64,000 nucleotides of DNA, taken from contig JBDRNV010000002.1 of assembly GCA_043810695.1 (NCBI GenBank), positions 5,015 to 69,014 on the forward strand. Direction: 5' to 3'. Below, piece by piece: positions 1,211 to 56,774 of this stretch. This stretch comes from Nanobdellota archaeon (GTDB lineage Archaea > Nanobdellota > Nanobdellia > Pacearchaeales > GW2011-AR1). A model generated the notes under the pieces. That model was given only the letters and a program-made list of their open reading frames with translations. It ran no database searches and was not told the origin of the DNA. The position numbers were made by a program, and so were the translations under genes. Numbering within the stretch: position 1 is the first letter of the stretch; every line of letters starts with the position of its first letter.

Positions 1211-1735
1211 ATGCTAAATAAATACAGCAGATACAGGGTTTTAAGGGTTTTTTTGCAAAAACCAACAGAAAGTTTTGGATTAAGGGAAATCGGTCGTCTT
1301 AGCAAATTATCTCCACCATCAGTGATTAAGTATCTAAAAGAGTTTGAATTAGATGGGCTAATAATCAAAACAGAAAAAAAAGGAATTCCCTCTTATCAAG
1401 CAGCCAAAGAAAATGAAGATTTTATCTTTTATAAAAAGGTAGATATTTTATATGAACTTCATAGTTCTGGTCTTGTCGACTATTTGTGGCAGAAATTAGG
1501 CCCAAATGCAATAATTTTATATGGAAGCCATGCAAAAGGGGAAGCTGCAGAAAACTCTGACATTGACATATTTATTATAGGAAAAGATAAAGATATTGTT
1601 CTGGCAGAATTTGAGAAAAAATTAGGTAGAGAAATACATTTGATGTTTGATAATAATGTAAAAAACATTCCGAGTGAACTTAAAAATAACCTAATCAACG
1701 GAATTATATTAAAAGGTTATTTTAAGGTGTTTTAA
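1211..1735 (+). CDS. wHTH + minimal nucleotidyltransferase (MNT-type, HEPN/MNT module)
   Basis: 'ILYGSHAKGEAAENSDIDIFIIG' = GS...DxD NTase motif; N-terminal winged-helix-like region; paralog at 2841..3368. Confidence 0.75.
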   Translation: MLNKYSRYRVLRVFLQKPTESFGLREIGRLSKLSPPSVIKYLKEFELDGLIIKTEKKGIPSYQAAKENEDFIFYKKVDILYELHSSGLVDYLWQKLGPNAIILYGSHAKGEAAENSDIDIFIIGKDKDIVLAEFEKKLGREIHLMFDNNVKNIPSELKNNLINGIILKGYFKVF

Positions 1736-2139
1736 TGATAATCAAAGTTTTTCCAGATAAAGAAAAAGCAAAGTCTATTCTAAAAATGGCCAATTCAAGG
1801 GAGCAATTTCTGAAAGACATGGAAAAAATAAAAATTTATTCAACAATAATTACTGAGAATTATTACGAAATAATTAAGGAGCTTTGTATAGCTGTAATCT
1901 TAACTGATGGTTATAAGGCCATTGGAGAAAATGCTCATAAAGAATTAATTGATTTTATGCGAAGATACAAAGAATTCAATGATTTTGAGATAGAAACAAC
2001 CTAGGATCTTAGGATAAGAAGAAATAAAAGCGCCTATGAAGGAAAGCAAATAGAACTAGTTTATCTGGAAAATAACAGGAATACTTTAATTAAGATAATT
2101 TCTAAACTAAAGAAAATTTTAGAGGGAAAACTTGACTAA
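1735..2139 (+). pseudogene. HEPN-domain partner of MNT, interrupted by in-frame TAG at 2002-2004
   Basis: 89-aa ORF stops at TAG; same frame continues 'DLRIRRNKSAYEGKQ...' (HEPN-like R-x-x-RN motif) to TAA at 2137-2139; start overlaps MNT stop (TAATG). Confidence 0.55.
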
Positions 2140-2161
2140 ACAATTATTATCTCTAAAATCC

Positions 2162-2203
2162 TTTTCCACAACACCAGTTTCCCATCTCTGTCCCATAAGA
2201 AAA
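2162..2203. repeat. copy b of nuclease-gene 3' end
   Basis: ttttccacaacaccagtttcccatctctgtcccataagaaaa; 34/41 identical to 3432-3472. Confidence 0.85.
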
Positions 2204-2233
2204 GAAACATTTATAAATAACTTACCATTATTT

Positions 2234-2575
2234 ATGTGTATGAAAATTAGTAAGGAAGACTTGCTTCGCATAAACAAAGGATTTGGAGGAAATCTTAGAA
2301 GCGACTCAAGTCTTGATTTTGCTATTGATAAAATAAACAGCTCAAAATTAGGGTTTTATAATAGATTAGCCTATTTATGGAGAGCAATATTAGTTGACCA
2401 CCCCTTTTCAGATGGTAATAAGAGAACAGCTGTATTTTTAGCATATGCTTTTGCAGAAGAAAGCAAGAAATATGTAGATAGAGATATATTAGTTCATCAA
2501 GCTATTTCAATAGCAAAGAAAAATATCACCAGTATAAGACAAATAGAATGGAGACTTAAAAATGCAATTAAATAA
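2234..2575 (+). CDS. Fic/Doc-family toxin
   Basis: 'HPFSDGNKRTA' = Fic motif HxFx[DE]GNxR; the tracked ORF start at 2132 is a TTG that reads through the repeat, ATG at 2234/2240 is more plausible. Confidence 0.75.
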   Translation: MCMKISKEDLLRINKGFGGNLRSDSSLDFAIDKINSSKLGFYNRLAYLWRAILVDHPFSDGNKRTAVFLAYAFAEESKKYVDRDILVHQAISIAKKNITSIRQIEWRLKNAIK

Positions 2576-2774
2576 AAAAATAATTAATAGGATATTGAAA
2601 AAGAATAAAAAAGCATTTGAAATGCTAGAAAATTACGATAAAACAAGAGAACTTCCATTTCAAAGAAAAAGAATAGATATTACTCTATCAGTGGAAACAC
2701 TAAGAAAACTTAAGGAATTAAAGGAAAAAACAAAAAAATCAATTTCCCAAATTATTGAAGAAAAAATTCAATAG
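2562..2774 (+). CDS. putative ribbon-helix-helix antitoxin-like protein
   Basis: 70 aa; 'RIDITLSVETLRKLKELKEKT' resembles an RHH beta-strand/helix; overlaps Doc stop. Confidence 0.4.
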   Translation: MQLNKKIINRILKKNKKAFEMLENYDKTRELPFQRKRIDITLSVETLRKLKELKEKTKKSISQIIEEKIQ

Positions 2775-2775
2775 C

Positions 2776-2815
2776 TTTTCCAAAAAATCAATTTCCCCTT
2801 CATCCTTCAACAAAA
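2776..2815. repeat. copy c of nuclease-gene 3' end (most diverged)
   Basis: ttttccaaaaaatcaatttccccttcatccttcaacaaaa followed by catttatata. Confidence 0.6.
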
Positions 2816-2840
2816 CATTTATATACCAAAGGGTACTAAA

Positions 2841-3368
2841 ATGTATATTATGGTACAAAGAAGTATACCGAGCTTATTTGCAGTTATTGAAGTCTTCTTT
2901 CAAGAGCCCACAAAAATACATTTTATCAAAGAAATAAGCCGAGAGATAAAACTTGCTCATACTTCTGTGAGAAACATAATAAAATACCTGGAGAAAAATC
3001 ATATAATTGTTAAGAAAAAATCAAAACCATTTGACGGATACACTGCAGATAGAGAGAATGAGGATTTTATCTTCTATAAAAAGGCTTACAATATTTATTC
3101 GTTGAAAGATATAACCCGTGAAATAGTAAATTCTGTTTATCCTTCAGCAATCGTTCTTTTCGGGTCTTATTCTCGCGGAGAAGATGTAGAATCAAGTGAT
3201 ATTGACATATTTGTTCTTTCTAAAGCAAAAAAAGAGATAAATGTCTCCCCATTTGAAAAAAGCCTTAAGAGAAAAATAAATATAATGACTCTCGACAGAA
3301 TTGAAAAACTTGATGAATTAATAAGGAAAAAAATAAATAACGGGACTGTTTTGCATGGTGAAATATGA
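2841..3368 (+). CDS. wHTH + minimal nucleotidyltransferase (second MNT)
   Basis: 'VLFGSYSRGEDVESSDIDIFVLS'; same architecture as 1211..1735. Confidence 0.75.
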   Translation: MYIMVQRSIPSLFAVIEVFFQEPTKIHFIKEISREIKLAHTSVRNIIKYLEKNHIIVKKKSKPFDGYTADRENEDFIFYKKAYNIYSLKDITREIVNSVYPSAIVLFGSYSRGEDVESSDIDIFVLSKAKKEINVSPFEKSLKRKINIMTLDRIEKLDELIRKKINNGTVLHGEI

Positions 3369-20449: not shown

Positions 20450-20587
20450 CGCCTCAGGCAGGAATCGAACCTGCGAACCCCGAAGGGTCGGGATCTTTGC
20501 GTTTTCTCCAATAAAGGAGATGTCGTAAGAAGAACCTTGGTTCTTTTTACTTAGCAATCCCGTGCAATACCATTATGCGACTGAGGC
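20450..20587 (-). tRNA. tRNA-Ser (anticodon GCU) with ~57-nt intron
   Basis: Hand fold: GCCTCAG acceptor, CGGGA/TCCCG anticodon stem, loop TTGCTA|A, long variable arm ACCCTTCGGGGTTC, T-arm GCAGGTTCGATTCCTGC; 138 nt minus 81 nt mature. Confidence 0.75.
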
Positions 20588-20638: not shown

Positions 20639-20730
20639 TAGCAGGGGAAGGATTTGAACCTCCGACCTCGGGGTTTCCCTTACAATATTAATATGGGCCC
20701 CGCGACCACTCCAAGCTGGTCCACCCTGCT
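20639..20730 (-). tRNA. tRNA-Met (CAU), probable initiator, with ~17-nt intron
   Basis: A1:U72 acceptor end (AGCAGGG/CCCTGCT), G-C-rich anticodon stem CGGGG/CCCCG, CAT in loop, T-arm GGAGGTTCAAATCCTTC. Confidence 0.65.
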
Positions 20731-21576: not shown

Positions 21577-21912
21577 TTACTCTCTTTTGAAAATTTCACA
21601 TAATCTTGTTTCAACTTCTTTTATTTTTTCTTTTTTTAAAGAACCAAACTTATAAGATACTATTGTTTTTCTAAGTGTGAATAATCTAGATGGTCTTATA
21701 AAACTTTTGATTTTTAAATTTCCTAATCTTAAGTCTTTTTGGAATAATAAAATTTTATCTTTATCTGGCCTGTCTTTTGTGGTAATTTGACAAAGAATTA
21801 TATCATCCCCTTCTAAATTAGCAACAACCAAAGCAGGTCTTTTTATGGTAGATGTTAAATCAGAAAAGGGAAAATAAGTAACTACAATATCTCCTTTTAC
21901 AAATCTTTCCAT
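21577..21912 (-). CDS. mazF: PemK/MazF-family toxin
   Basis: 'VKGDIVVTYFPFSDLTSTIKRPALVV' SH3-like N-terminus of MazF/PemK. Confidence 0.7.
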   Translation of the reverse strand: MERFVKGDIVVTYFPFSDLTSTIKRPALVVANLEGDDIILCQITTKDRPDKDKILLFQKDLRLGNLKIKSFIRPSRLFTLRKTIVSYKFGSLKKEKIKEVETRLCEIFKRE

Positions 21913-22248: not shown

Positions 22249-23049
22249 ATGGAAACCGAGAATCTGGGATATGTTAAAGGATTGGGAGAAATTCATAGAA
22301 TTAATGCTCCATTTGTAGTGCAATTGGGAGCTTTTAGAGAAATAGGAATAAAGGCACCTGTAAGCGTAAGAGATACTTCTTTAATAAGGCTCAGCGGAAA
22401 ATCCACAGAAGGAACAAGGACATGTCACGCTCCTGTTTACCTTAAGAATTCTCCTACAATAGTTGCGAGAATGTCTCCTTTGGTAAGAAATTTAGGAATG
22501 GCACAAAAAGCAGTGAATGCTCACAAAAGCAGTGAATATCCTGTTTTTGGTAGCTCGATTTATGCCCAGTGGGAAAAGATTGCAAAACAGGACAAGGGAA
22601 AGAAGCCTGAGAAAAGAAGGGCAATCATACTTCCTGAAAGAAAAGATTTTGACATACATAGGGATTCAGACGAAGCAGAATTTTTCTGGCAGGACAAAAG
22701 AAAAGAATATTTTAAAAGATTTGTTTCAGCAGATAAAGTCATAGCGTATCAAATCGACCCAGAAACGGTTGATTCTCAAGATGGAGCAATTGTGAATTAT
22801 CTCTGGTTCGACGATCCCGAGGATGGTTCTTACTTGTACCTTAGGAGCAGGAGCTTGTACTATGACGACAGGGCTTTCGGGGTGTTGGAGAAAACCAGCG
22901 AAGCTGGTTTGCAAAAAATTTCAGGAAATTTGGTCAGGCATTATACTCAAAGAGAAGCAAAAAAATATACTAATATTCTTCAGGATGTTATGTCTGGAAA
23001 AACAGGAACTTCAAAATTAGAAAAAGTGCTTAAGCATTTTAAAAAATAA
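22249..23049 (+). CDS. DGR-type variable (target) protein candidate
   Basis: Contains the variable repeat 22801-22872 near its C-terminus; locally higher G+C by eye than neighbours. Confidence 0.6.
   Translation: METENLGYVKGLGEIHRINAPFVVQLGAFREIGIKAPVSVRDTSLIRLSGKSTEGTRTCHAPVYLKNSPTIVARMSPLVRNLGMAQKAVNAHKSSEYPVFGSSIYAQWEKIAKQDKGKKPEKRRAIILPERKDFDIHRDSDEAEFFWQDKRKEYFKRFVSADKVIAYQIDPETVDSQDGAIVNYLWFDDPEDGSYLYLRSRSLYYDDRAFGVLEKTSEAGLQKISGNLVRHYTQREAKKYTNILQDVMSGKTGTSKLEKVLKHFKK
22801..22872 (+). other. variable repeat (VR) of a diversity-generating-retroelement-like pair
   Basis: 72-nt ungapped match to 23310-23381; 10 of 11 mismatches lie at adenines of the other copy. Confidence 0.75.
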
Positions 23050-23309
23050 AAACAGAAAGCAATTTAAACATAAGTTTCTTTTTTTATCTGCCTTGACTCT
23101 TATTTGAAGCATATGTACAAAAACATATGCTGGTGAGAATAATAGAAAGGCCACACGCCAGTTTATTAAGGCATTATTCAAGTTTATTTTAAGTCATAAA
23201 ATTCAGAAGCGACTTGCGAGAAGCTTCGGTGCGCAAATTAAATTTTGCTGTGTGCAGGCAAGATTCCTGACGTGAAAATTATTCATGAGATAAATTGGCT
23301 ACAAAAAGT

Positions 23310-23381
23310 CTCTGGTTCAACAATCCCGAGAATGGTTCTAACTTGAACCTTAGGGACAGGAACTTGAACAATGACAACAGG
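23310..23381 (+). other. template repeat (TR), non-coding
   Basis: AAY-rich (reads LWFNNPENGSNLNLRDRNLNNDNR); the tracked ORF 23295..23480 is probably not a gene. Confidence 0.75.
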
Positions 23382-23577
23382 AACAGCTATGCTTTTGGAA
23401 TGGCCTTAAGTCAGGGCATTTTATATTTAGCATTAAAATTATTAATCATTCTTACATTAATCTTTAAAAATCCCGAATAGTTCTTTTTATAATCATGCAA
23501 TTAAAAAGGGAAGTTGAATGTGGTAAATTAAAGGAGGTTGACTGTTAAGGAACCTTGGTGCCTTACAGTGTCTTACA

Positions 23578-26442
23578 ATGGCTTACATAAAAAAACTGGT
23601 GATACATGGCTTTAAGAGTTTTCCAAGAAAAACAGAGATTCCTTTTACAAAAGGAATAAATATAATTTTAGGCCCGAATGGCTCTGGAAAATCAAACGTA
23701 TCTGATGCTTTATGCTTTGTTCTGGGAAGACTAAGCATTAAATCAATGCGTGCTGCAAAAGCAGGCAATTTAATTTTTATGGGAACAAAAGAAGCCTCTC
23801 CTGCAAAAGAAGCCTCTGTTGAAATAATTTTTGATAATTCAGATAAAACATTTTCTTTGGATAAAAATGAAATAATTATTAAGAGAATTGTAAGAAGAAA
23901 CGGGCAAAGCATTTACAAAATTGATAATGAAACAAAAACAAGACAGGAAGTTCTTTCTTTGCTTGCTCAGGCTGGAATAGATCCACAAGGATTTAATATT
24001 ATTCTTCAGGGAGAGATACAGAGTTTTGTGAGAATGCAGCCAGAAGATAGAAGAACAGTAATTGAAGAAGTTGCAGGAATATCTGTTTATGAATCAAGAA
24101 AAGAAAAGTCACTTCACGAGCTTGAAAAGACAGAAGACAGACTTAAAGAAATCAGCTCTATTCTCAGAGAGAGAACTTCTTATTTGAATAATCTTGAAAA
24201 AGAAAGACAGCAGGCACTAAGATTCAAGAAACTTGAGGCAGATATAAAAAAGTTTAGAGCAAGTATAATCTATTTCAACCTTCATAAAAAAAGAAAAGAA
24301 AATGAGAAAATAAACTCTGATATAGAACAAAGAAATAATGAAATAGAAAAAATAAAGAAAGTAATCATTGGAATTGAAACAGAAACAAAAAATTTTTCTT
24401 TTAAAATAGATAACATAAATTCTGAAATACAAAAATCTACAGGACTTGAACAGGAAAAACTTAATCAAGAAATAGCCAATTTAAGGGCAGAACTTGCAGG
24501 GCTTAATGTAAAACTTGAAAACCAAGAATCAAGACTTTCTAATTTATTAAAACAAAAAGAAGAATTCCAAAAATCGCTGAAAGAATCAGAGCTTTCAATA
24601 AAAGAGCTTCAGAAAGAGTCTCCTACACCAGAAAGAAATGCAAAAGAAATAGAGGAAAAAAAGAAAGAACTTGAGAAGCTTGAAGAAAAAAGAAAAAAAT
24701 TCTACATGATTAAATCAGAAATAAACTCTGTCAAAGAAAGAATTGAAGATAAAAATTCTCTTCTTCAGAATTATACAAACGAATCTAATTTTTTAATAAA
24801 GCAAATTGAATCCCTTTCAATACAAATTTTTGATAAAAAAGCAAATTCTGAAAAACTAGGCAGGTTTAAAATCTCTTTATCAGAAAAAAAAGAATTCCTT
24901 AATAGTTTAGTAAAAAAAGAAATAGAACTTGAAAAAAATAGTTCTATTAATTTATCAGAAATAGAAAATCAAAAAAGAATTATAGAAAAAATATCAAAAT
25001 TAGATATATGTCCTGTATGTAAAAGCAAAATAACTCCAAAACATATGGAAGAAATAAAAAAAGAAATCATCCCCCACATAGAATCTTTAAAAAAGACAAT
25101 AGAATCCTCTGATTCTGAATTAAAAACAATATATCAGAAAAAAGAAATAATAATAAAAGATATCGATGAACTAGCTCAGCAGATATCAAAAACAGATACA
25201 GATCTAAATAAACTTTCAAATATAAATGATAAAAAAAATCAGATTAAAATTTTATATGAAAAATTAGAAAATCTAAAAAAAGAGCTAGCAGAATTAACTA
25301 AGAAAAAAACTAATCTTGAAAGAATTTTTGAAACAGACTCTAATATAGAGCAAAAATATGAGACTTTGAAAATAGAAGTTCAGGAAATATCTCTAAGAAC
25401 CAAAAAAACACTAAAATCAGAAGTTGAATTTAAACAGAGAGAAATTGAAAGAATAAAAATTTCTTTGAAACAAATATCTCGGGAAGAGACTGATGCAAAT
25501 GAAGAATTATTCTCTCTTAAGAAAATATTTGAAGAAAAGAATAAAATTTTAACCAAAAAAAGACAGCAGGAAGAAGAATTAAATAAAAAATTCGAAGAAA
25601 TGCTTTCTGAAAAAGAGAGATTGCAGAAAAAAATAAGAGAAAAAGAAACAGATACTCTTTCAAAAAAACATGCAATTCATATTATAGAACTTGAAATAAA
25701 TGAATTCAAAATTGAAAAAGCAAGAGTTGATGCAGAGATAGAGAATTTTGAAACAGAGATGCTTGAATTTTCAAATGTTGAAATAATAAAGACAAATAAG
25801 GATGTTCTGGTTGAAAGGCTTGCTAAATCACAGGAAATTATTTCAAGAGTAGGAACTGTCAATCTCCGCTCCCTTGAAGTTTATGATTCAATAAAAAAAG
25901 AGTATGATGTTGTAAAAGAAAAAGCAGGAATAATAGAAAAAGAAAAAGATAATATATTAAAAGTAATACATGAAATAGATGTAAAAAAGAAAAAATCATT
26001 TATTCAGACACTTAAAAAAATAAACGAGCTTTTTTCAAGAAATCTATCTCAATTGATTCCAAAAGCAGAGGTTTTCCTTGAGCTTGAAAACAACCAAAAC
26101 CCGTTTGAACCAGGTTCTGGAGTTCAGATAATTGTAAAGACAGGACACGGGAAATACTTTGATGTTAAATCTCTTTCAGGAGGAGAACAGACTCTTGTTG
26201 CTCTCTCGCTTATATTTGCGATTCAGGAATATCGTCCTTACTACTTTTATCTTCTAGACGAAATTGATGCAGCTCTTGACAAAAGAAATTCAGAAAGGCT
26301 TGCCGGGCTTCTTAACAAATACATGCTTAATGGGCAGTATATAGTTATCACACACAATGATGAAATTATTTCAAAGGCAACAAATCTTTATGGAATAAGT
26401 ATGCATGATGGAATTTCTAAAATTATTAGTCTTAAAGTGTAG
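23578..26442 (+). CDS. smc: SMC-family ATPase with central CxxC in place of a hinge domain
   Basis: SMC head motifs 'GPNGSGKSN', 'ILQGEIQSF', 'EEVAGISVYESRK', 'LSGGEQTLVALSLIFAIQ', 'LLDEIDAALD'; CPVC at aa 478-481 of 954 (25009-25020). Confidence 0.8.
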   Translation: MAYIKKLVIHGFKSFPRKTEIPFTKGINIILGPNGSGKSNVSDALCFVLGRLSIKSMRAAKAGNLIFMGTKEASPAKEASVEIIFDNSDKTFSLDKNEIIIKRIVRRNGQSIYKIDNETKTRQEVLSLLAQAGIDPQGFNIILQGEIQSFVRMQPEDRRTVIEEVAGISVYESRKEKSLHELEKTEDRLKEISSILRERTSYLNNLEKERQQALRFKKLEADIKKFRASIIYFNLHKKRKENEKINSDIEQRNNEIEKIKKVIIGIETETKNFSFKIDNINSEIQKSTGLEQEKLNQEIANLRAELAGLNVKLENQESRLSNLLKQKEEFQKSLKESELSIKELQKESPTPERNAKEIEEKKKELEKLEEKRKKFYMIKSEINSVKERIEDKNSLLQNYTNESNFLIKQIESLSIQIFDKKANSEKLGRFKISLSEKKEFLNSLVKKEIELEKNSSINLSEIENQKRIIEKISKLDICPVCKSKITPKHMEEIKKEIIPHIESLKKTIESSDSELKTIYQKKEIIIKDIDELAQQISKTDTDLNKLSNINDKKNQIKILYEKLENLKKELAELTKKKTNLERIFETDSNIEQKYETLKIEVQEISLRTKKTLKSEVEFKQREIERIKISLKQISREETDANEELFSLKKIFEEKNKILTKKRQQEEELNKKFEEMLSEKERLQKKIREKETDTLSKKHAIHIIELEINEFKIEKARVDAEIENFETEMLEFSNVEIIKTNKDVLVERLAKSQEIISRVGTVNLRSLEVYDSIKKEYDVVKEKAGIIEKEKDNILKVIHEIDVKKKKSFIQTLKKINELFSRNLSQLIPKAEVFLELENNQNPFEPGSGVQIIVKTGHGKYFDVKSLSGGEQTLVALSLIFAIQEYRPYYFYLLDEIDAALDKRNSERLAGLLNKYMLNGQYIVITHNDEIISKATNLYGISMHDGISKIISLKV
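26401..26442. repeat. smc 3' end (genuine), left copy
   Basis: 42 nt, 41/42 identical to 26471-26512. Confidence 0.9.
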
Positions 26443-26470
26443 CATAACTTCGTCCAAGCTTGGCCGTCGT
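26443..26470. repeat. 28-nt near-palindromic element (CCAAGCTTGG core)
   Basis: cataACTTCGTCCAAG|CTTGGCCGTCGT; related elements at 56115-56153 and 52339-52366. Confidence 0.7.
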
Positions 26471-26512
26471 ATGCATGATGGAATTTCTAAAATTATTAGT
26501 CTTAAAGTATAG
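26471..26512. repeat. second copy of smc 3' end
   Basis: atgcatgatggaatttctaaaattattagtcttaaagtatag; followed by a TATA-like ttatatac and the RelBE-like cassette. Confidence 0.9.
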
Positions 26513-26548: not shown

Positions 26549-26782
26549 ATGGATACAACAATACAAATAAGCAAAGAACTTTTAGGAAAATTACAAAAAA
26601 TGAAGATGCATAATAAAGAAAGTTACGAGGATATAATTTGGGATTTAATAGAAGATAGAATGGAACTCTCTGAAGAAACAAAAAGGGATATTGCAGAATA
26701 TGAAATAGATTTAAAGAAAGGAAAATCTAGAAAATTCCATAAATGGGAAGATGTTAAAAAGGAGCTAAATCTAAATGTATGA
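26549..26782 (+). CDS. antitoxin of RelE/ParE module (putative)
   Basis: 77 aa, overlaps toxin start by 8 nt. Confidence 0.55.
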   Translation: MDTTIQISKELLGKLQKMKMHNKESYEDIIWDLIEDRMELSEETKRDIAEYEIDLKKGKSRKFHKWEDVKKELNLNV

Positions 26783-27026
26783 AATAATTCTTTCAGAAAA
26801 AGCTAAAAAACAATTAAAAAAATTAAATAAATTAACTCAGGAAAGAATAGGTTCTGTTATTGAAAGAATAAAAATTCGTCCGTTTTCTTACGATATAAAA
26901 AAACTTCAAGGAACATCTTATTACAGAGCAAGAGTGGGTGAATATAGAATTATTTTAGATATTCAACAAAATAAGTTAATTATTATTGTAATAGAAATAG
27001 GACATAGAAAAAATATTTATGATTAA
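26775..27026 (+). CDS. relE: RelE/ParE-family toxin
   Basis: 'YYRARVGEYRIILDI...IIVIEIGHRKNIY' typical RelE C-terminal half. Confidence 0.75.
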   Translation: MYEIILSEKAKKQLKKLNKLTQERIGSVIERIKIRPFSYDIKKLQGTSYYRARVGEYRIILDIQQNKLIIIVIEIGHRKNIYD

Positions 27027-28070: not shown

Positions 28071-28322
28071 ATGGACGATGCCATAATATCTTTAAGAGTA
28101 GACAAAGAACTTAGAAAGAAAATGAGAGCGCAGGAGGAAGTTAACTGGAGTGCTATCTTAAGAAGAGCTATAATGGAAAATATTGAAAATAAAGAAAAAG
28201 TTGATTTGGAAAAAAGAAAAAAAGCCATAGAGGCAATGGATAAACTTAGAAAATCCAGGGCATTTGACCATGGCAAAAATAGCACATTAAGAATAAGAGA
28301 ATGGAGAAACAAGAGAAGGTAA
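28071..28322 (+). CDS. vapB: VapB-like antitoxin
   Basis: 'ISLRVDKELRKKM' RHH-like N-terminus; overlaps PIN gene. Confidence 0.6.
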   Translation: MDDAIISLRVDKELRKKMRAQEEVNWSAILRRAIMENIENKEKVDLEKRKKAIEAMDKLRKSRAFDHGKNSTLRIREWRNKRR

Positions 28323-28708
28323 TAGATGCTTCAGTAATAGTTAAATGGTTTCTTGATGAAGAAAATTCTGATACTGCAAGAATATTAAGGTCGGAATTAG
28401 CAAAAGAAAATTTAATATTGATTGTTCCTGATTTATTATTCTTAGAAGTCTTAAATACTTTAAGATATAAAATGGTGAAAAAAGATGATCTAATAAAGGC
28501 TAATGAGATACTGGCTGGACTGAGTTTAAAGACAGTAAGAGTAAATAAAGAAATTATGTCAAAGACAATAGAAAACTCTGTGAAATACAAAATAACTATT
28601 TACGATGCCTTGTACATCACATTGGCACAAATTCATGGGACATTTTTGGTAACTGCAGATAAAGAACTGTATAAAGTTCCTAATGTGATTGCCTTGGAGA
28701 AGGTTTAG
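28301..28708 (+). CDS. vapC: PIN-domain VapC toxin
   Basis: 'VIDASVIVKWFLDEE' N-terminal acidic PIN motif; later 'YDALYITLA'. Confidence 0.75.
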   Translation: MEKQEKVIDASVIVKWFLDEENSDTARILRSELAKENLILIVPDLLFLEVLNTLRYKMVKKDDLIKANEILAGLSLKTVRVNKEIMSKTIENSVKYKITIYDALYITLAQIHGTFLVTADKELYKVPNVIALEKV

Positions 28709-36346: not shown

Positions 36347-36380
36347 AAAACTTCGAAACTCTGTTATAATTATATACGCT

Positions 36381-36403
36381 CATCCTTGCTTCGGCAAGGG
36401 ATG
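36381..36403 (+). promoter_or_regulatory. UUCG-tetraloop hairpin in the leader of the NYN gene
   Basis: catccttgc-ttcg-gcaagggatg (9 bp, one bulge) between TATA-like ttataattatata and the ATG at 36416. Confidence 0.45.
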
Positions 36404-36415
36404 GGCATTATTTAA

Positions 36416-55708: not shown

Positions 55709-56089
55709 ATGAAAAAAATATTAATACAAGATAGATTTTCTACTGATAGTCATATTGATTCATTAAAGAATCTTTTAGAGTTGGAGTTTAAGGATAAACA
55801 AATTGAATTCAATCTTGTTTTCTGTTTGAGAGGCGCTAAATTTCCTATAATCGATTACAATTTAATTATTTCACACCCACCTATTTTTGATAATTGCTGT
55901 GTTCCATTGATTGAACAAGCTGTTAGAAAGAATGTTCCTGTTGTTTTTAGATATCATACTAAATATCCTCATGGTAATGAAATAGAAGCCATAGCTCAAA
56001 ATCTTGGGATGGATATAAACTATAGTAGTAGTGGAAATTGGAGAGAAGTATATGGTAATATAATCAAAAAGTTTATAGAAAAAGATTAA
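55709..56089 (+). CDS. hypothetical protein (cassette ORF, antisense to the ribosomal operon)
   Basis: 126-aa ORF whose stop abuts the rps7-end copy. Confidence 0.4.
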   Translation: MKKILIQDRFSTDSHIDSLKNLLELEFKDKQIEFNLVFCLRGAKFPIIDYNLIISHPPIFDNCCVPLIEQAVRKNVPVVFRYHTKYPHGNEIEAIAQNLGMDINYSSSGNWREVYGNIIKKFIEKD

Positions 56090-56114
56090 TTATCGTGCGC
56101 TATCTACCTGCTTT
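56090..56114. repeat. degenerate copy of the rps7 3' end
   Basis: ttatcgtgcgctatctacctgcttt vs ttatcgtgccgagtcggcttgcttt at 56154-56178. Confidence 0.6.
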
Positions 56115-56153
56115 ACTTTGACCAAGCTTGGGCGAAGTAATGAAAGCCGACAA
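56115..56153. repeat. 39-nt near-palindromic element (CCAAGCTTGG core)
   Basis: ACTTTGACCAAG|CTTGGGCGAAGT (10/12 arm pairs) plus aatgaaagccgacaa. Confidence 0.7.
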
Positions 56154-56774
56154 TTATCGTGCCGAGTCGGCTTGCTTTTCAGATTCAATTTTCTTTTTAA
56201 CAGCAAAGCTTTCTTGATTTCCTTCAGAAGCAAGCATTATTTCTTCTGCAATTCCCTGAGCAAGATCTTTTTTCTTGCCGAATGCTTTTTCAGAAGCACC
56301 ATGAATAATATGCTTTAAAGCAAGATTTACTCTTCTTAAAGGAGATACGTCAACTGCCTGGGGATATCTTGCTCCACCATATTCTATTACTGTTATTTCA
56401 TCTCTTGGTGCAGAATTTTCAACAGCTTTTATGAGAATCTCTATAGGATTTTTTCCTGTTTTTTTTGCTATTTGTTCAAAAGCATCAAGTACAATCCCTG
56501 TATTTTTTGAATATTTTCCAGTTGAAGTCCCAACCATAAGTTTATGTTTTTTTCCTCTATGCCCTGCAACACCTATTTTATTTATCAGCCTTTCAACTAT
56601 ATTGACTTTTGTCTGCCCGAATTTCTGAACATTTCTTCCATGGCTTTTCAGAGCCAGCTTTGGAGTTAGGTTTATCGCATCCTTAAGTCCTACATCTTTT
56701 ACCTGAATTCCTTCTGTCTCATATAAATCAAAAATTTTGAATGTAAGTGGCTGTATGTTTTTTTGTTCTGTCAT
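56154..56774 (-). CDS. rps7: 30S ribosomal protein S7 (uS7)
   Basis: 'VNIVERLINK', 'IEYGGARYPQAVDVSP.RR' conserved uS7 blocks. Confidence 0.9.
   Translation of the reverse strand: MTEQKNIQPLTFKIFDLYETEGIQVKDVGLKDAINLTPKLALKSHGRNVQKFGQTKVNIVERLINKIGVAGHRGKKHKLMVGTSTGKYSKNTGIVLDAFEQIAKKTGKNPIEILIKAVENSAPRDEITVIEYGGARYPQAVDVSPLRRVNLALKHIIHGASEKAFGKKKDLAQGIAEEIMLASEGNQESFAVKKKIESEKQADSAR

Follow-up and report, generated by a model that had tools for sequence, protein, structure and literature searches.

Comparative sequence evidence places the duplicated stop region at the end of the smc gene among the copies of a conserved module found in tiny (DPANN) archaea of one group. In this module, a complete gene end with its stop codon is followed by an imperfect hairpin and then by one or two extra copies of the last 13 codons (8 in the gene for ribosomal protein S7), each with a stop codon of its own. 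As judged from substitution patterns, selection keeps both the hairpin and the recoded copy of the gene tail, and no known mechanism fully explains why.

The window (the whole 64-kb stretch of DNA that was analysed) carries this architecture at two genes, smc and rpS7 (Table 1). At the former, positions 26399–26442 recur at 26469–26512 with a single mismatch (G26439 versus A26509) that reads GTG in one copy and GTA in the other and is synonymous; no copy of the repeat appeared in 100 dinucleotide shuffles. The 28 nt between the 42-nt units, CATAACTTCGTCCAAGCTTGGCCGTCGT, have a G+C content of about 54% versus 29% in the window, their arms (ACTTCGTCCAAG and CTTGGCCGTCGT) are complementary at 9 of 12 positions, and the core CGTCCAAGCTTGGCCG is called a palindrome by repeat analysis. 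In this hairpin, the 5′ base carries the smc stop codon and the 3′ base the AUG with which copy 2 begins, with the frame of copy 2 shifted by one relative to smc (homologues of which carry the name chromosome segregation protein SMC in Pacearchaeota and Nanoarchaeota MAGs). All that the original prediction had described here was seen again, namely a stop-region duplication with one mismatch around a G+C-rich near-palindrome of 28 nt, and so was the toxin–antitoxin cassette that it placed after the second copy, with an antitoxin-like ORF and a ParE/RelE-family toxin beginning 36 nt downstream. Immediately upstream of smc lies a DGR (VR 22801–22872, TR 23310–23381) whose mismatch pattern is adenine-confined.

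Table 1. Features of the two modules and their surroundings in the window.
Feature	Position	Strand	Description
smc gene, host of module 1	23578..26442	+	954 aa; SMC_N head domains; Pfam SMC_N 2.9e-52
smc copy 1 (functional smc end)	26399..26442	+	GT + last 13 codons MHDGISKIISLKV + TAG
smc spacer, imperfect hairpin	26443..26470	+	CAUA-ACUUCG-U-CCAAGCUUGG-C-CGUCGU
smc copy 2	26471..26512	+	Stand-alone 13-codon mini-ORF (ATG...TAG), encodes the same MHDGISKIISLKV
Antitoxin-like ORF	26549..26782		DUF7557/VapB-like; starts 36 nt after smc copy 2
ParE/RelE-family toxin	26775..27026		Downstream of smc module
Ribosomal protein S7 gene, host of module 2	56154..56774	-	Pfam Ribosomal_S7 1.3e-34
S7 copy A	56152..56178	-	..KQADSAR* + TT; G+C-rich codons
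S7 X′ segment	56139..56151	-	GUCGGCUUUCAUU on S7 strand; complementary to copy A start (13 nt, 85%)
S7 palindrome, second copy of motif	56115..56138	-	ACUUCGCCCAAGCUUGGUCAAAGU on S7 strand; 0 expected by chance
S7 copy B	56088..56114	-	Encodes KQVDSAR*; A+T-rich recoded codons

The whole smc structure is identical in a separate MEGAHIT contig (ENA ERZ27247121, L001) and is, given this independent assembly, no assembly artefact. An origin as an artefact or look-alike (assembly error, vector or linker, a DGR TR/VR pair, or a one-spacer CRISPR-like array) could draw on short 10-mer matches to loxP and pUC (ATAACTTCGT, which we take to resemble loxP, and AAGCTTGGC..CGTCGT, which presumably resembles pUC), on the DGR directly upstream of smc, and on a layout that is formally repeat–spacer–repeat; we consider it extremely improbable, as the identical second assembly is joined by orthologous modules in MAGs from many studies. 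The same two observations rule out vector or linker contamination. Differences between the module copies involve all four bases, are synonymous and are not adenine-specific, unlike those of the window's real DGR, which excludes a DGR off-target event or TR/VR pair, while a CRISPR-like mini-array is excluded because the repeats are conserved at the level of the peptide and diverge by up to 31% in nucleotides. The module does resemble a DGR in having a nearby repeat of a gene's 3′ portion and a hairpin that follows the copy in the gene; it differs in its synonymous changes, in a 42-nt repeat that contains a stop codon, and in having no associated RT.

The window contains a further copy of the palindrome at the rpS7 3′ end, again between duplicated gene-end sequences. 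Across its 64 kb, the motif has these two matches only, both lying between the duplicated stop regions of essential genes, which is the outcome that the original prediction set out as favouring its idea. The presence of a near-identical hairpin at two unrelated genes implies that it has been copied between sites at least once. The duplications measure 44 nt at smc (coding unit 42) and 27 nt at S7, and both start at a codon boundary and take in the stop. The S7 C-terminus reads ...QADSAR* in 119 of 120 homologues among the matches listed (KSADSAR in the remaining one). Within copy A, AAGCCGAC pairs with the X′ segment downstream, placing the stop codon in a 14-nt loop; the relative L126 has the same copy A sequence despite differing flanks, and the X′ segment is kept there and, in degenerate form, in L128. 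Copy B is recoded (GTA GAT AGC versus GCC GAC TCG in copy A), differs from its L126 counterpart by 3 synonymous and 0 non-synonymous changes, and carries a V residue found in 0 of 120 functional S7 tails among the matches listed. It has no AUG; a UUG lies in frame inside the hairpin. The L126 hairpin displays a C–G to U–A compensatory change and a sense-strand G·U wobble, the S7 spacer differs in length by 1 nt between the window and L126, and partial deletion derivatives occur among S7 relatives. Besides the toxin–antitoxin pair, other accessory genes also lie near modules, just downstream.

The module layout is present in approximately 16 of 58 related smc ends (about a quarter, in Pacearchaeota and Nanoarchaeota). 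Seven further smc modules were found in metagenomes, where most matches of the pattern scan were unrelated to the module; a pattern scan of viral_contigs gave chance matches only. Copy number in smc modules reaches three (L103 has three intact copies), and copy 2 always starts with exactly ATG(C/T)A(C/T)GA, its AUG lying 28–32 nt past the stop, at the other base of the hairpin. Across modules, the repeat period is 70, 71, 72, 73, 74, 100 or 133–135 nt and the frame offset varies, hence the copies hold no conserved frame relation. Spacers in the approximately 25 modules span 26–172 nt and contain no ORF, and no cargo lies between the copies in any of them. The distribution is patchy, with many losses and most relatives lacking the module; a decaying second copy is seen in about a third of modules (L010, L016, L024, L031, L090, L096), tandem arrays occur, and the module is structurally polymorphic within a species (L002 versus L003). 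The Hainich groundwater wells are the source of L002, L003, L028/L105, L037/L120 and L103. In the window and in L015, the copies are identical or nearly so. Each clade has its own hairpin types, module types agree with the SMC tree, and inheritance of the module across genera is mostly vertical.

Both the spacer and the second copy are under strong purifying selection. Between L028 and L037, 45 of 89 four-fold sites differ versus 0 of 30 spacer positions (P ~ 7e-10), with 7 synonymous and 0 non-synonymous changes in copy 1 and 8 and 0 in copy 2, such that spacer, copy 1 and copy 2 have been kept in place over saturating synonymous divergence; between L028 and L032, the spacer differs at 2 of 31 positions (P ~ 5e-12). 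Orthologous second copies exhibit 17 synonymous and 0 non-synonymous changes (P ~ 3e-13; random change in copy 2 is expected to be only 18% synonymous), and copies compared within genomes differ by 45 synonymous changes and 1 non-synonymous. Lineage-specific residues are common to both copies (T in L049, a terminal L in L028 and L037). Serine codon families often differ between the two copies, and the codon family of serine 1 flips often among single-copy orthologues. Copy 2 of L107 is identical to the functional end of module-free L009 at 40 of 42 positions, compared to only 31 of 42 for L107 copy 1, and the single end of L020 resembles a chimera of the two L019 copies.

These patterns bear on the idea that the module is a cargo-less transposon or MITE with its target-site duplication, or else a scar after cargo loss, now neutrally decaying. 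Direct repeats surround the palindrome at two sites, toxin–antitoxin and other accessory genes lie just downstream, and some second copies decay, all of which would suit such an origin; we nonetheless regard it as very unlikely, because duplication length is not fixed, because there are no dispersed copies (two in 64 kb, and no hairpin outside smc ends in 834 kb of related DNA), because none of about 25 modules holds cargo, and because the module is common to genomes with saturated four-fold sites and its spacer and second copy are under purifying selection. No transposase domain was detected in the 64-kb window, and the unequal duplication lengths and synonymous recoding of the copies are unlike a transposase target-site duplication. 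The suggestion in the original prediction of a mobile or recombinogenic unit is supported in part (a discrete palindrome, at two sites, copied at least once); its alternative, an excision scar left by lost cargo, is not supported, in view of the lack of any relative with cargo, of selection on the spacer and copy 2, and of mostly vertical inheritance.

Known elements with related features part from the module on similar grounds. An integrated element bounded by attL and attR was rejected, given spacers without ORF, cargo or integrase and the failure to find a third, distant repeat copy at either DNA or peptide level. Integrative elements whose att site overlaps the 3′ end of a tRNA or protein gene generate direct repeats, one of which keeps the gene intact, and share with the module a gene 3′ end present twice, an intact gene, and successive events that can give tandem arrays; the module repeats, in contrast, are only 26–172 nt apart with no integrase or cargo anywhere, its copies are synonymously recoded, and its displaced copy and spacer are under long-term purifying selection. 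REP and IS200/IS605 hairpins are imperfect palindromes, dispersed intergenically, that are recognized as single-stranded DNA by a Y1/HUH enzyme. The module has a comparable imperfect hairpin with conserved mismatches, but its copies are not dispersed and no TnpA or RAYT was seen in the window.

Orthologous smc spacers retain the ends CATGACTYCG...CGTCGT, the apical stem being changed by compensatory substitutions, and the imperfect hairpin keeps conserved mismatches (Y·Y, as U·C or C·U). The 5′ end of each spacer, whether short or long, is complementary to the opening codons of the copy that follows, which places the stop and restart codons at the hairpin base. Folding energies of the sense and antisense strands are similar, so that action as RNA, not single-stranded DNA, rests on one G·U pair. 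No Rfam 15 family matched at gathering score, nor did the long spacers match Rfam; a C/D-box sRNA was rejected (permissive Rfam matches were sub-threshold, E 0.2–1, and driven by UGAUGA-like codons), as was an antisense ORF across the module, whose reading frame is closed. Pairing of the spacer 5′ arm with upstream LYGVS codons (a 7-nt match in L003, 10-nt in L032) is not kept in L028, L037 or the window, and may be coincidental.

An archaeal intron (BHB or other), whose removal would join smc to copy 2 with copy 1 serving as an exon mimic for unspliced mRNA, would account for two coding copies and a conserved spacer structure; the window has intron-containing tRNAs, and DPANN archaea possess broad-specificity splicing endonucleases. 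Using BHB geometry calibrated on the window tRNA-Ser intron (a 4-bp helix, then a 3-nt bulge cut after the second nucleotide, on both strands), threading the smc and S7 hairpins by hand yielded no BHB whose excision would take out the stop codon; the best BHB-like fold combines a 3-bp helix with bulges of 2 and 3 nt and lies entirely past the stop. Two redundant copies should, moreover, not both remain under selection, and we hold splicing to be highly doubtful. Continuity by read-through or frameshifting is excluded by varying repeat periods and by the 1-nt difference between the S7 spacer and that of L126. Bypassing of the gene 60/byp type is excluded in smc, where the codon before the restart frame is CGU and the last sense codon is Val, Ile or Leu; in S7, an in-frame CGN codon does exist.

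We tentatively favor, with considerable reservation, a model in which the repeated terminal mini-ORF is itself decoded, its start being linked to the stop codon by a structured RNA hairpin. The hairpin would most likely act as RNA on the sense strand, with the full-length ORF's stop positioned at its 5′ base and the opening codons of the following copy (in smc, the AUG) in its 3′ base; a terminating ribosome, with the hairpin unwound, would be delivered to the next copy, which would be decoded via termination–reinitiation or hairpin-assisted sliding. Translation of the extra copy, action of the hairpin as RNA and the reinitiation route are what we infer from sequence. In favor of the model stand the two sites in the window with their common hairpin, the recurrence of the layout among relatives along the SMC tree, the selection on spacer and extra copies, the residues common to both copies, the synonymous-only changes in S7 copy B despite its unusual V, the compensatory pair and G·U of the S7 hairpin, and the placing of stop and restart codons at the hairpin base. 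Any benefit would be dispensable, because most relatives lack the module and the second copy is decaying in about a third. There is no Shine–Dalgarno-like motif before the restart, reinitiation leaves the systematic serine codon-family difference between copies unexplained, and the absence of an AUG from S7 copy B (the UUG being the sole in-frame candidate) argues against its decoding. CaMV-type ribosome shunting across a hairpin base is eukaryotic, and termination–reinitiation is a form of translational coupling; the module is like both in that a stable hairpin directly follows a stop and carries a restart codon at its 3′ base, yet in no case of either known to us does translation resume on a duplicate of the final codons of the upstream ORF. 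In an extended form, to which we give limited credence, the hairpin after the stop would hand ribosomes to recoded tail copies to yield free C-terminal tail peptides (of SMC and S7) or an alternative tail, with divergence of the copies itself selected against recombination. We know of no role for a free peptide that has the same sequence as the C-terminus of a protein.

The main alternative, in our estimate rather unlikely, is a site-specific insertion that is selfish and compensates for itself, of the homing or immunity type. Here, a small hairpin element would enter a highly conserved gene directly before its last 13 codons, bringing or making replacement codons and a stop that leave the host protein unchanged; loss would proceed by recombination between copies and regain by recombination or a trans-acting enzyme, and both copies would still look coding since each is at times the functional end. 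Both targets are essential and highly conserved genes, and SMC of the same clade also hosts inteins (P0012, P0024, P0031). The patchy distribution with its many losses, tandem arrays and L002/L003 polymorphism is consistent with such an element, as are the closeness of L107 copy 2 to the L009 functional end, the chimera-like L020 end, frequent serine-1 codon-family flips among single-copy orthologues, the S7 partial deletion derivatives, and the (nearly) identical copies in the window and L015, which would be expected after a recent event. On the other side stand the lack of any nuclease, recombinase, transposase or RT in the element or the 64-kb window, the absence of the hairpin elsewhere in 834 kb of related DNA, and the persistence in L028 and L037 of the whole module in place across saturating synonymous divergence; S7 copy B, moreover, carries a V absent from the functional S7 tails among the matches listed, and has therefore probably never served in turn as the functional end.

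A further point for the selfish insertion is the precedent of recoded homology regions in the T4 MobA element, where MobA and the gene 60 bypass cassette place a structured insert with a stop and stem-loops harmlessly in a highly conserved gene, the insert-derived homology region diverges from the target, and the element outlasts endonuclease loss (bioRxiv 10.1101/2022.08.31.505936). The module is similarly a small structured insert with a stop, an unharmed protein and a diverged homology region. Unlike T4 gene 60, it is not bypassed (the duplicated tail completes the ORF before the insert) and smc has no matched take-off and landing codons; unlike MobA, which is of phage, its host is archaeal and no endonuclease was found. 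In Allomyces atp6, with its endonuclease ORF, the insert reportedly brings a replacement C-terminal segment that displaces the resident one, as Paquin et al. are said to have described in 1994. There too, the end of the coding sequence is present twice, and the resident version persists downstream without being translated, but the displaced copy is a pseudogene and the insert has an endonuclease gene, whereas the module has no ORF and its displaced copy is intact.

In either reading, decoded copy or selfish insertion, the module has been missed entirely by gene callers and annotation pipelines: a duplicate of the last 13 codons past a stop, with no fixed frame and untranslated in appearance, behaves as coding sequence across genera. 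Were it a selfish insertion, no smaller self-compensating element would be known than this enzyme-less pairing of a hairpin with a recoded gene tail; it would also account for the odd codon-family flips at conserved gene ends. Were the copy decoded, it would point to a translation event, so far undescribed, in DPANN archaea, a group in which gene expression has to our knowledge hardly been studied, and would add a new class of micro-peptides with links to chromosome segregation and the ribosome. The module offers a compact, testable 70-nt system.

The original prediction of a repeated smc stop region held up: the end of the SMC reading frame recurs with a single synonymous mismatch, and the two 42-nt coding units lie only 28 nt (CATAACTTCGTCCAAGCTTGGCCGTCGT) apart. 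The repeat never arose in 100 shuffles, and a separate MEGAHIT contig (ENA) carries a structure identical throughout. The predicted toxin–antitoxin cassette 3′ of this module (gene end with stop, hairpin spacer, further copy of the last codons and stop) is likewise present, as a DUF7557/VapB-like antitoxin with a ParE/RelE-family toxin. The window has a G+C content of ~29% and contains intron-bearing tRNAs, and its SMC clusters with Pacearchaeota/Nanoarchaeota (DPANN) MAGs.

Features of the window and their positions
Feature	Position	Strand	Description
smc copy 1	26399-26442		GT + final 13 codons + TAG of 954-aa SMC ORF
smc copy 2	26469-26512		Repeat of copy 1, one synonymous mismatch
Second palindrome	56115-56138	-	3′ end of ribosomal protein S7 gene
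S7 copy A	56152-56178	-	KQADSAR*, genuine gene end
S7 copy B	56088-56114	-	KQVDSAR*
126-aa ORF	55709-56089	+	No Pfam match; between rpS7 and EF-2
DGR region	22249-23400		Directly 5′ of smc
DGR target ORF	22249-23049		VR at 22801-22872
DGR TR	23310-23381		72-nt span
RT-16 RNA (Rfam)	23091-23307		76 bits
CGCTCATCCTTGCTTCGGCAAGGGATGGGCA hairpin	36377-36407		UUCG loop, G+C-rich; 5′ of NYN-domain gene
Adjacent intron-containing tRNA genes	20450-20587; 20640-20730	-	
Toxin–antitoxin and related cassettes	1211-3368; 21577-21912; 26549-27026; 28071-28708		

No transposase, integrase, reverse transcriptase or nuclease domain was found in the 64-kb window, the module holds no cargo, there is no distant third copy, and the duplications at smc and S7 are of unequal length. 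Several familiar explanations could be rejected. A bulge–helix–bulge intron (geometry calibrated on the window's own tRNA-Ser intron) offers no placeable splicing motif that would remove the stop codon; a translational hop lacks matched hop codons in smc; and Rfam yields only sub-threshold C/D-box matches. Nor are the copies a template/variable repeat (TR/VR) pair, their differences not being adenine-directed, unlike those of the true diversity-generating retroelement (DGR) adjoining smc, whose TR has A at all but one of 13 mismatches. A hairpin, AAACCAGCGAAGCTGGTTT, lies ~20 nt 3′ of that VR. Since the RT-16 RNA lies directly against TR on the 5′ side and no RT gene occurs in the 64-kb window, the RT-16 motif appears to be the 5′ scaffold of the DGR's template RNA.

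Further elements accompany these. The CGCTCATCCTTGCTTCGGCAAGGGATGGGCA hairpin is identical in the distant genome L056, ~100 nt 3′ of smc, and may therefore be a conserved small RNA or terminator-like element. One of the tRNA genes, tRNA-Ser(GCU), has a 57-nt intron within a canonical BHB, and its CAU-anticodon neighbor a short one (ARAGORN found neither, Rfam only the first). The window is unusually rich in toxin–antitoxin and related cassettes (MazF/PemK, DUF7557 antitoxin with ParE/RelE, PIN/VapC toxin, two MNT-like nucleotidyltransferase genes and a Fic/DOC gene), several directly adjoining housekeeping genes. In three SMC homologues of this clade (P0012, P0024 and P0031; 1465–1487 aa), an intein bears a LAGLIDADG endonuclease domain, marking smc as a recurrent selfish-element target in these archaea.

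The nearest relatives (85–86% amino-acid identity, Hainich groundwater) share the window's layout, and the site is empty in a 76% relative. Modules occur at ~16 of 58 readable ends (64 smc loci fetched from GTDB genomes), and scanning metagenomes for a DNA pattern brought seven more. Copy 2 invariably starts with ATG(C/T)A(C/T)GA, at the Met codon. In short spacers (28–32 nt) the ends (T)CATG(G)ACTYCG...CGTCGT are retained, and the apical stem varies by compensatory substitutions (CCAAGCTTGG, AAAC..GTTT, TGAATT..AATTCA, CGCGAG..CTCGCG) beside a conserved pyrimidine–pyrimidine mismatch. Long spacers (91–172 nt; L014 5934–6105; L019, L024, L049; L031, 3′ of copy 2) form a second class, possibly an undescribed structured RNA, with a conserved GCGATTTY..GAGG..AAATCGC hairpin, a GAACC..GGTTC hairpin and no Rfam match. 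In L103 two distinct spacers separate three intact copies, and an array rearrangement separates L002 from L003, of one species.

Within the window there is one further CCAAGCTTGG with ACTT.G/CG.AGT arms, again at a duplicated stop region, that of S7; across all ORF ends of the window and 834 kb of related DNA, such duplication is confined to these two genes. The S7 copies differ six times within 9 nt, five differences being synonymous (including a TCG/AGC serine switch), and the V of copy B appears in 0 of 120 functional S7 tails. The module is common to the window, L123 (97% amino-acid identity) and L126 (89%), with partial remnants only in L124 and L128 and none in L127 or L129. Relative to the window, copy A of L126 is unchanged and copy B carries three synonymous changes, the only substitutions behind the S7 statistics; the frame relation is not conserved because the L126 spacer is 1 nt longer. 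In its hairpin a C-G pair has become U-A by compensatory change and the sense strand forms a G.U, a single wobble pair which suggests that the hairpin may act on the sense strand, as RNA rather than DNA. The 126-aa ORF, inserted in reverse orientation within the conserved S12-S7-EF2 operon, has its stop adjoining copy B; it is found in module-bearing L123 and L126 and missing from L124/L125, L127, L128 and L129.

Types of smc module track the SMC tree with many losses (orthology inferred from MAG contigs and a neighbor-joining tree). Between L028 and L037, 45 of 89 four-fold sites differ but 0 of 30 spacer positions (P~7e-10), with seven synonymous and no non-synonymous changes in copy 1 and 8/0 in copy 2; for L028 and L032 the values are 39/59, 2/31 (P~5e-12), 7/5 and 6/3. 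Orthologous second copies show 17 synonymous versus 0 non-synonymous changes (P~3e-13), against an 18% synonymous share for random substitutions, and copies within a genome differ by 45 and 1. Lineage-specific residues are common to both copies, and serine codon families frequently differ between them; about one third of second copies are visibly in decay. Copy 2 of L107 matches the functional end of L009, which has no module, at 40/42 positions, and the single smc end of L020 resembles a chimera of both L019 copies, consistent with loss via inter-copy recombination. The module is thus maintained by selection and inherited mostly vertically, and its original interpretation as a cargo-loss scar falls away, whereas that of a mobile or recombinogenic unit is partly supported.

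The main rival to translation of the extra copy, which we rate only a little lower, is a selfish, self-compensating insertion cycling through recombinational loss and regain, each copy periodically serving as the functional end. Patchy distribution, arrays, chimeric ends and the parallel with the T4 MobA element favor such cycling, but no enzyme was found, L028 and L037 co-retain the parts over a long time, and the V of S7 copy B sits poorly with it. Translation is the most direct reading of a low dN/dS in a copy beyond the ORF, and the hairpin geometry (stop codon at the 5′ base, first codons of the next copy in the 3′ base) suggests a ribosome that terminates and then reinitiates or slides. 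Judging from sequence, we tentatively propose that the extra copy may be decoded in this manner: a ribosome would terminate at the stop on the 5′ base, and reinitiation or sliding would then bring it to the first codons of the next copy on the 3′ base.
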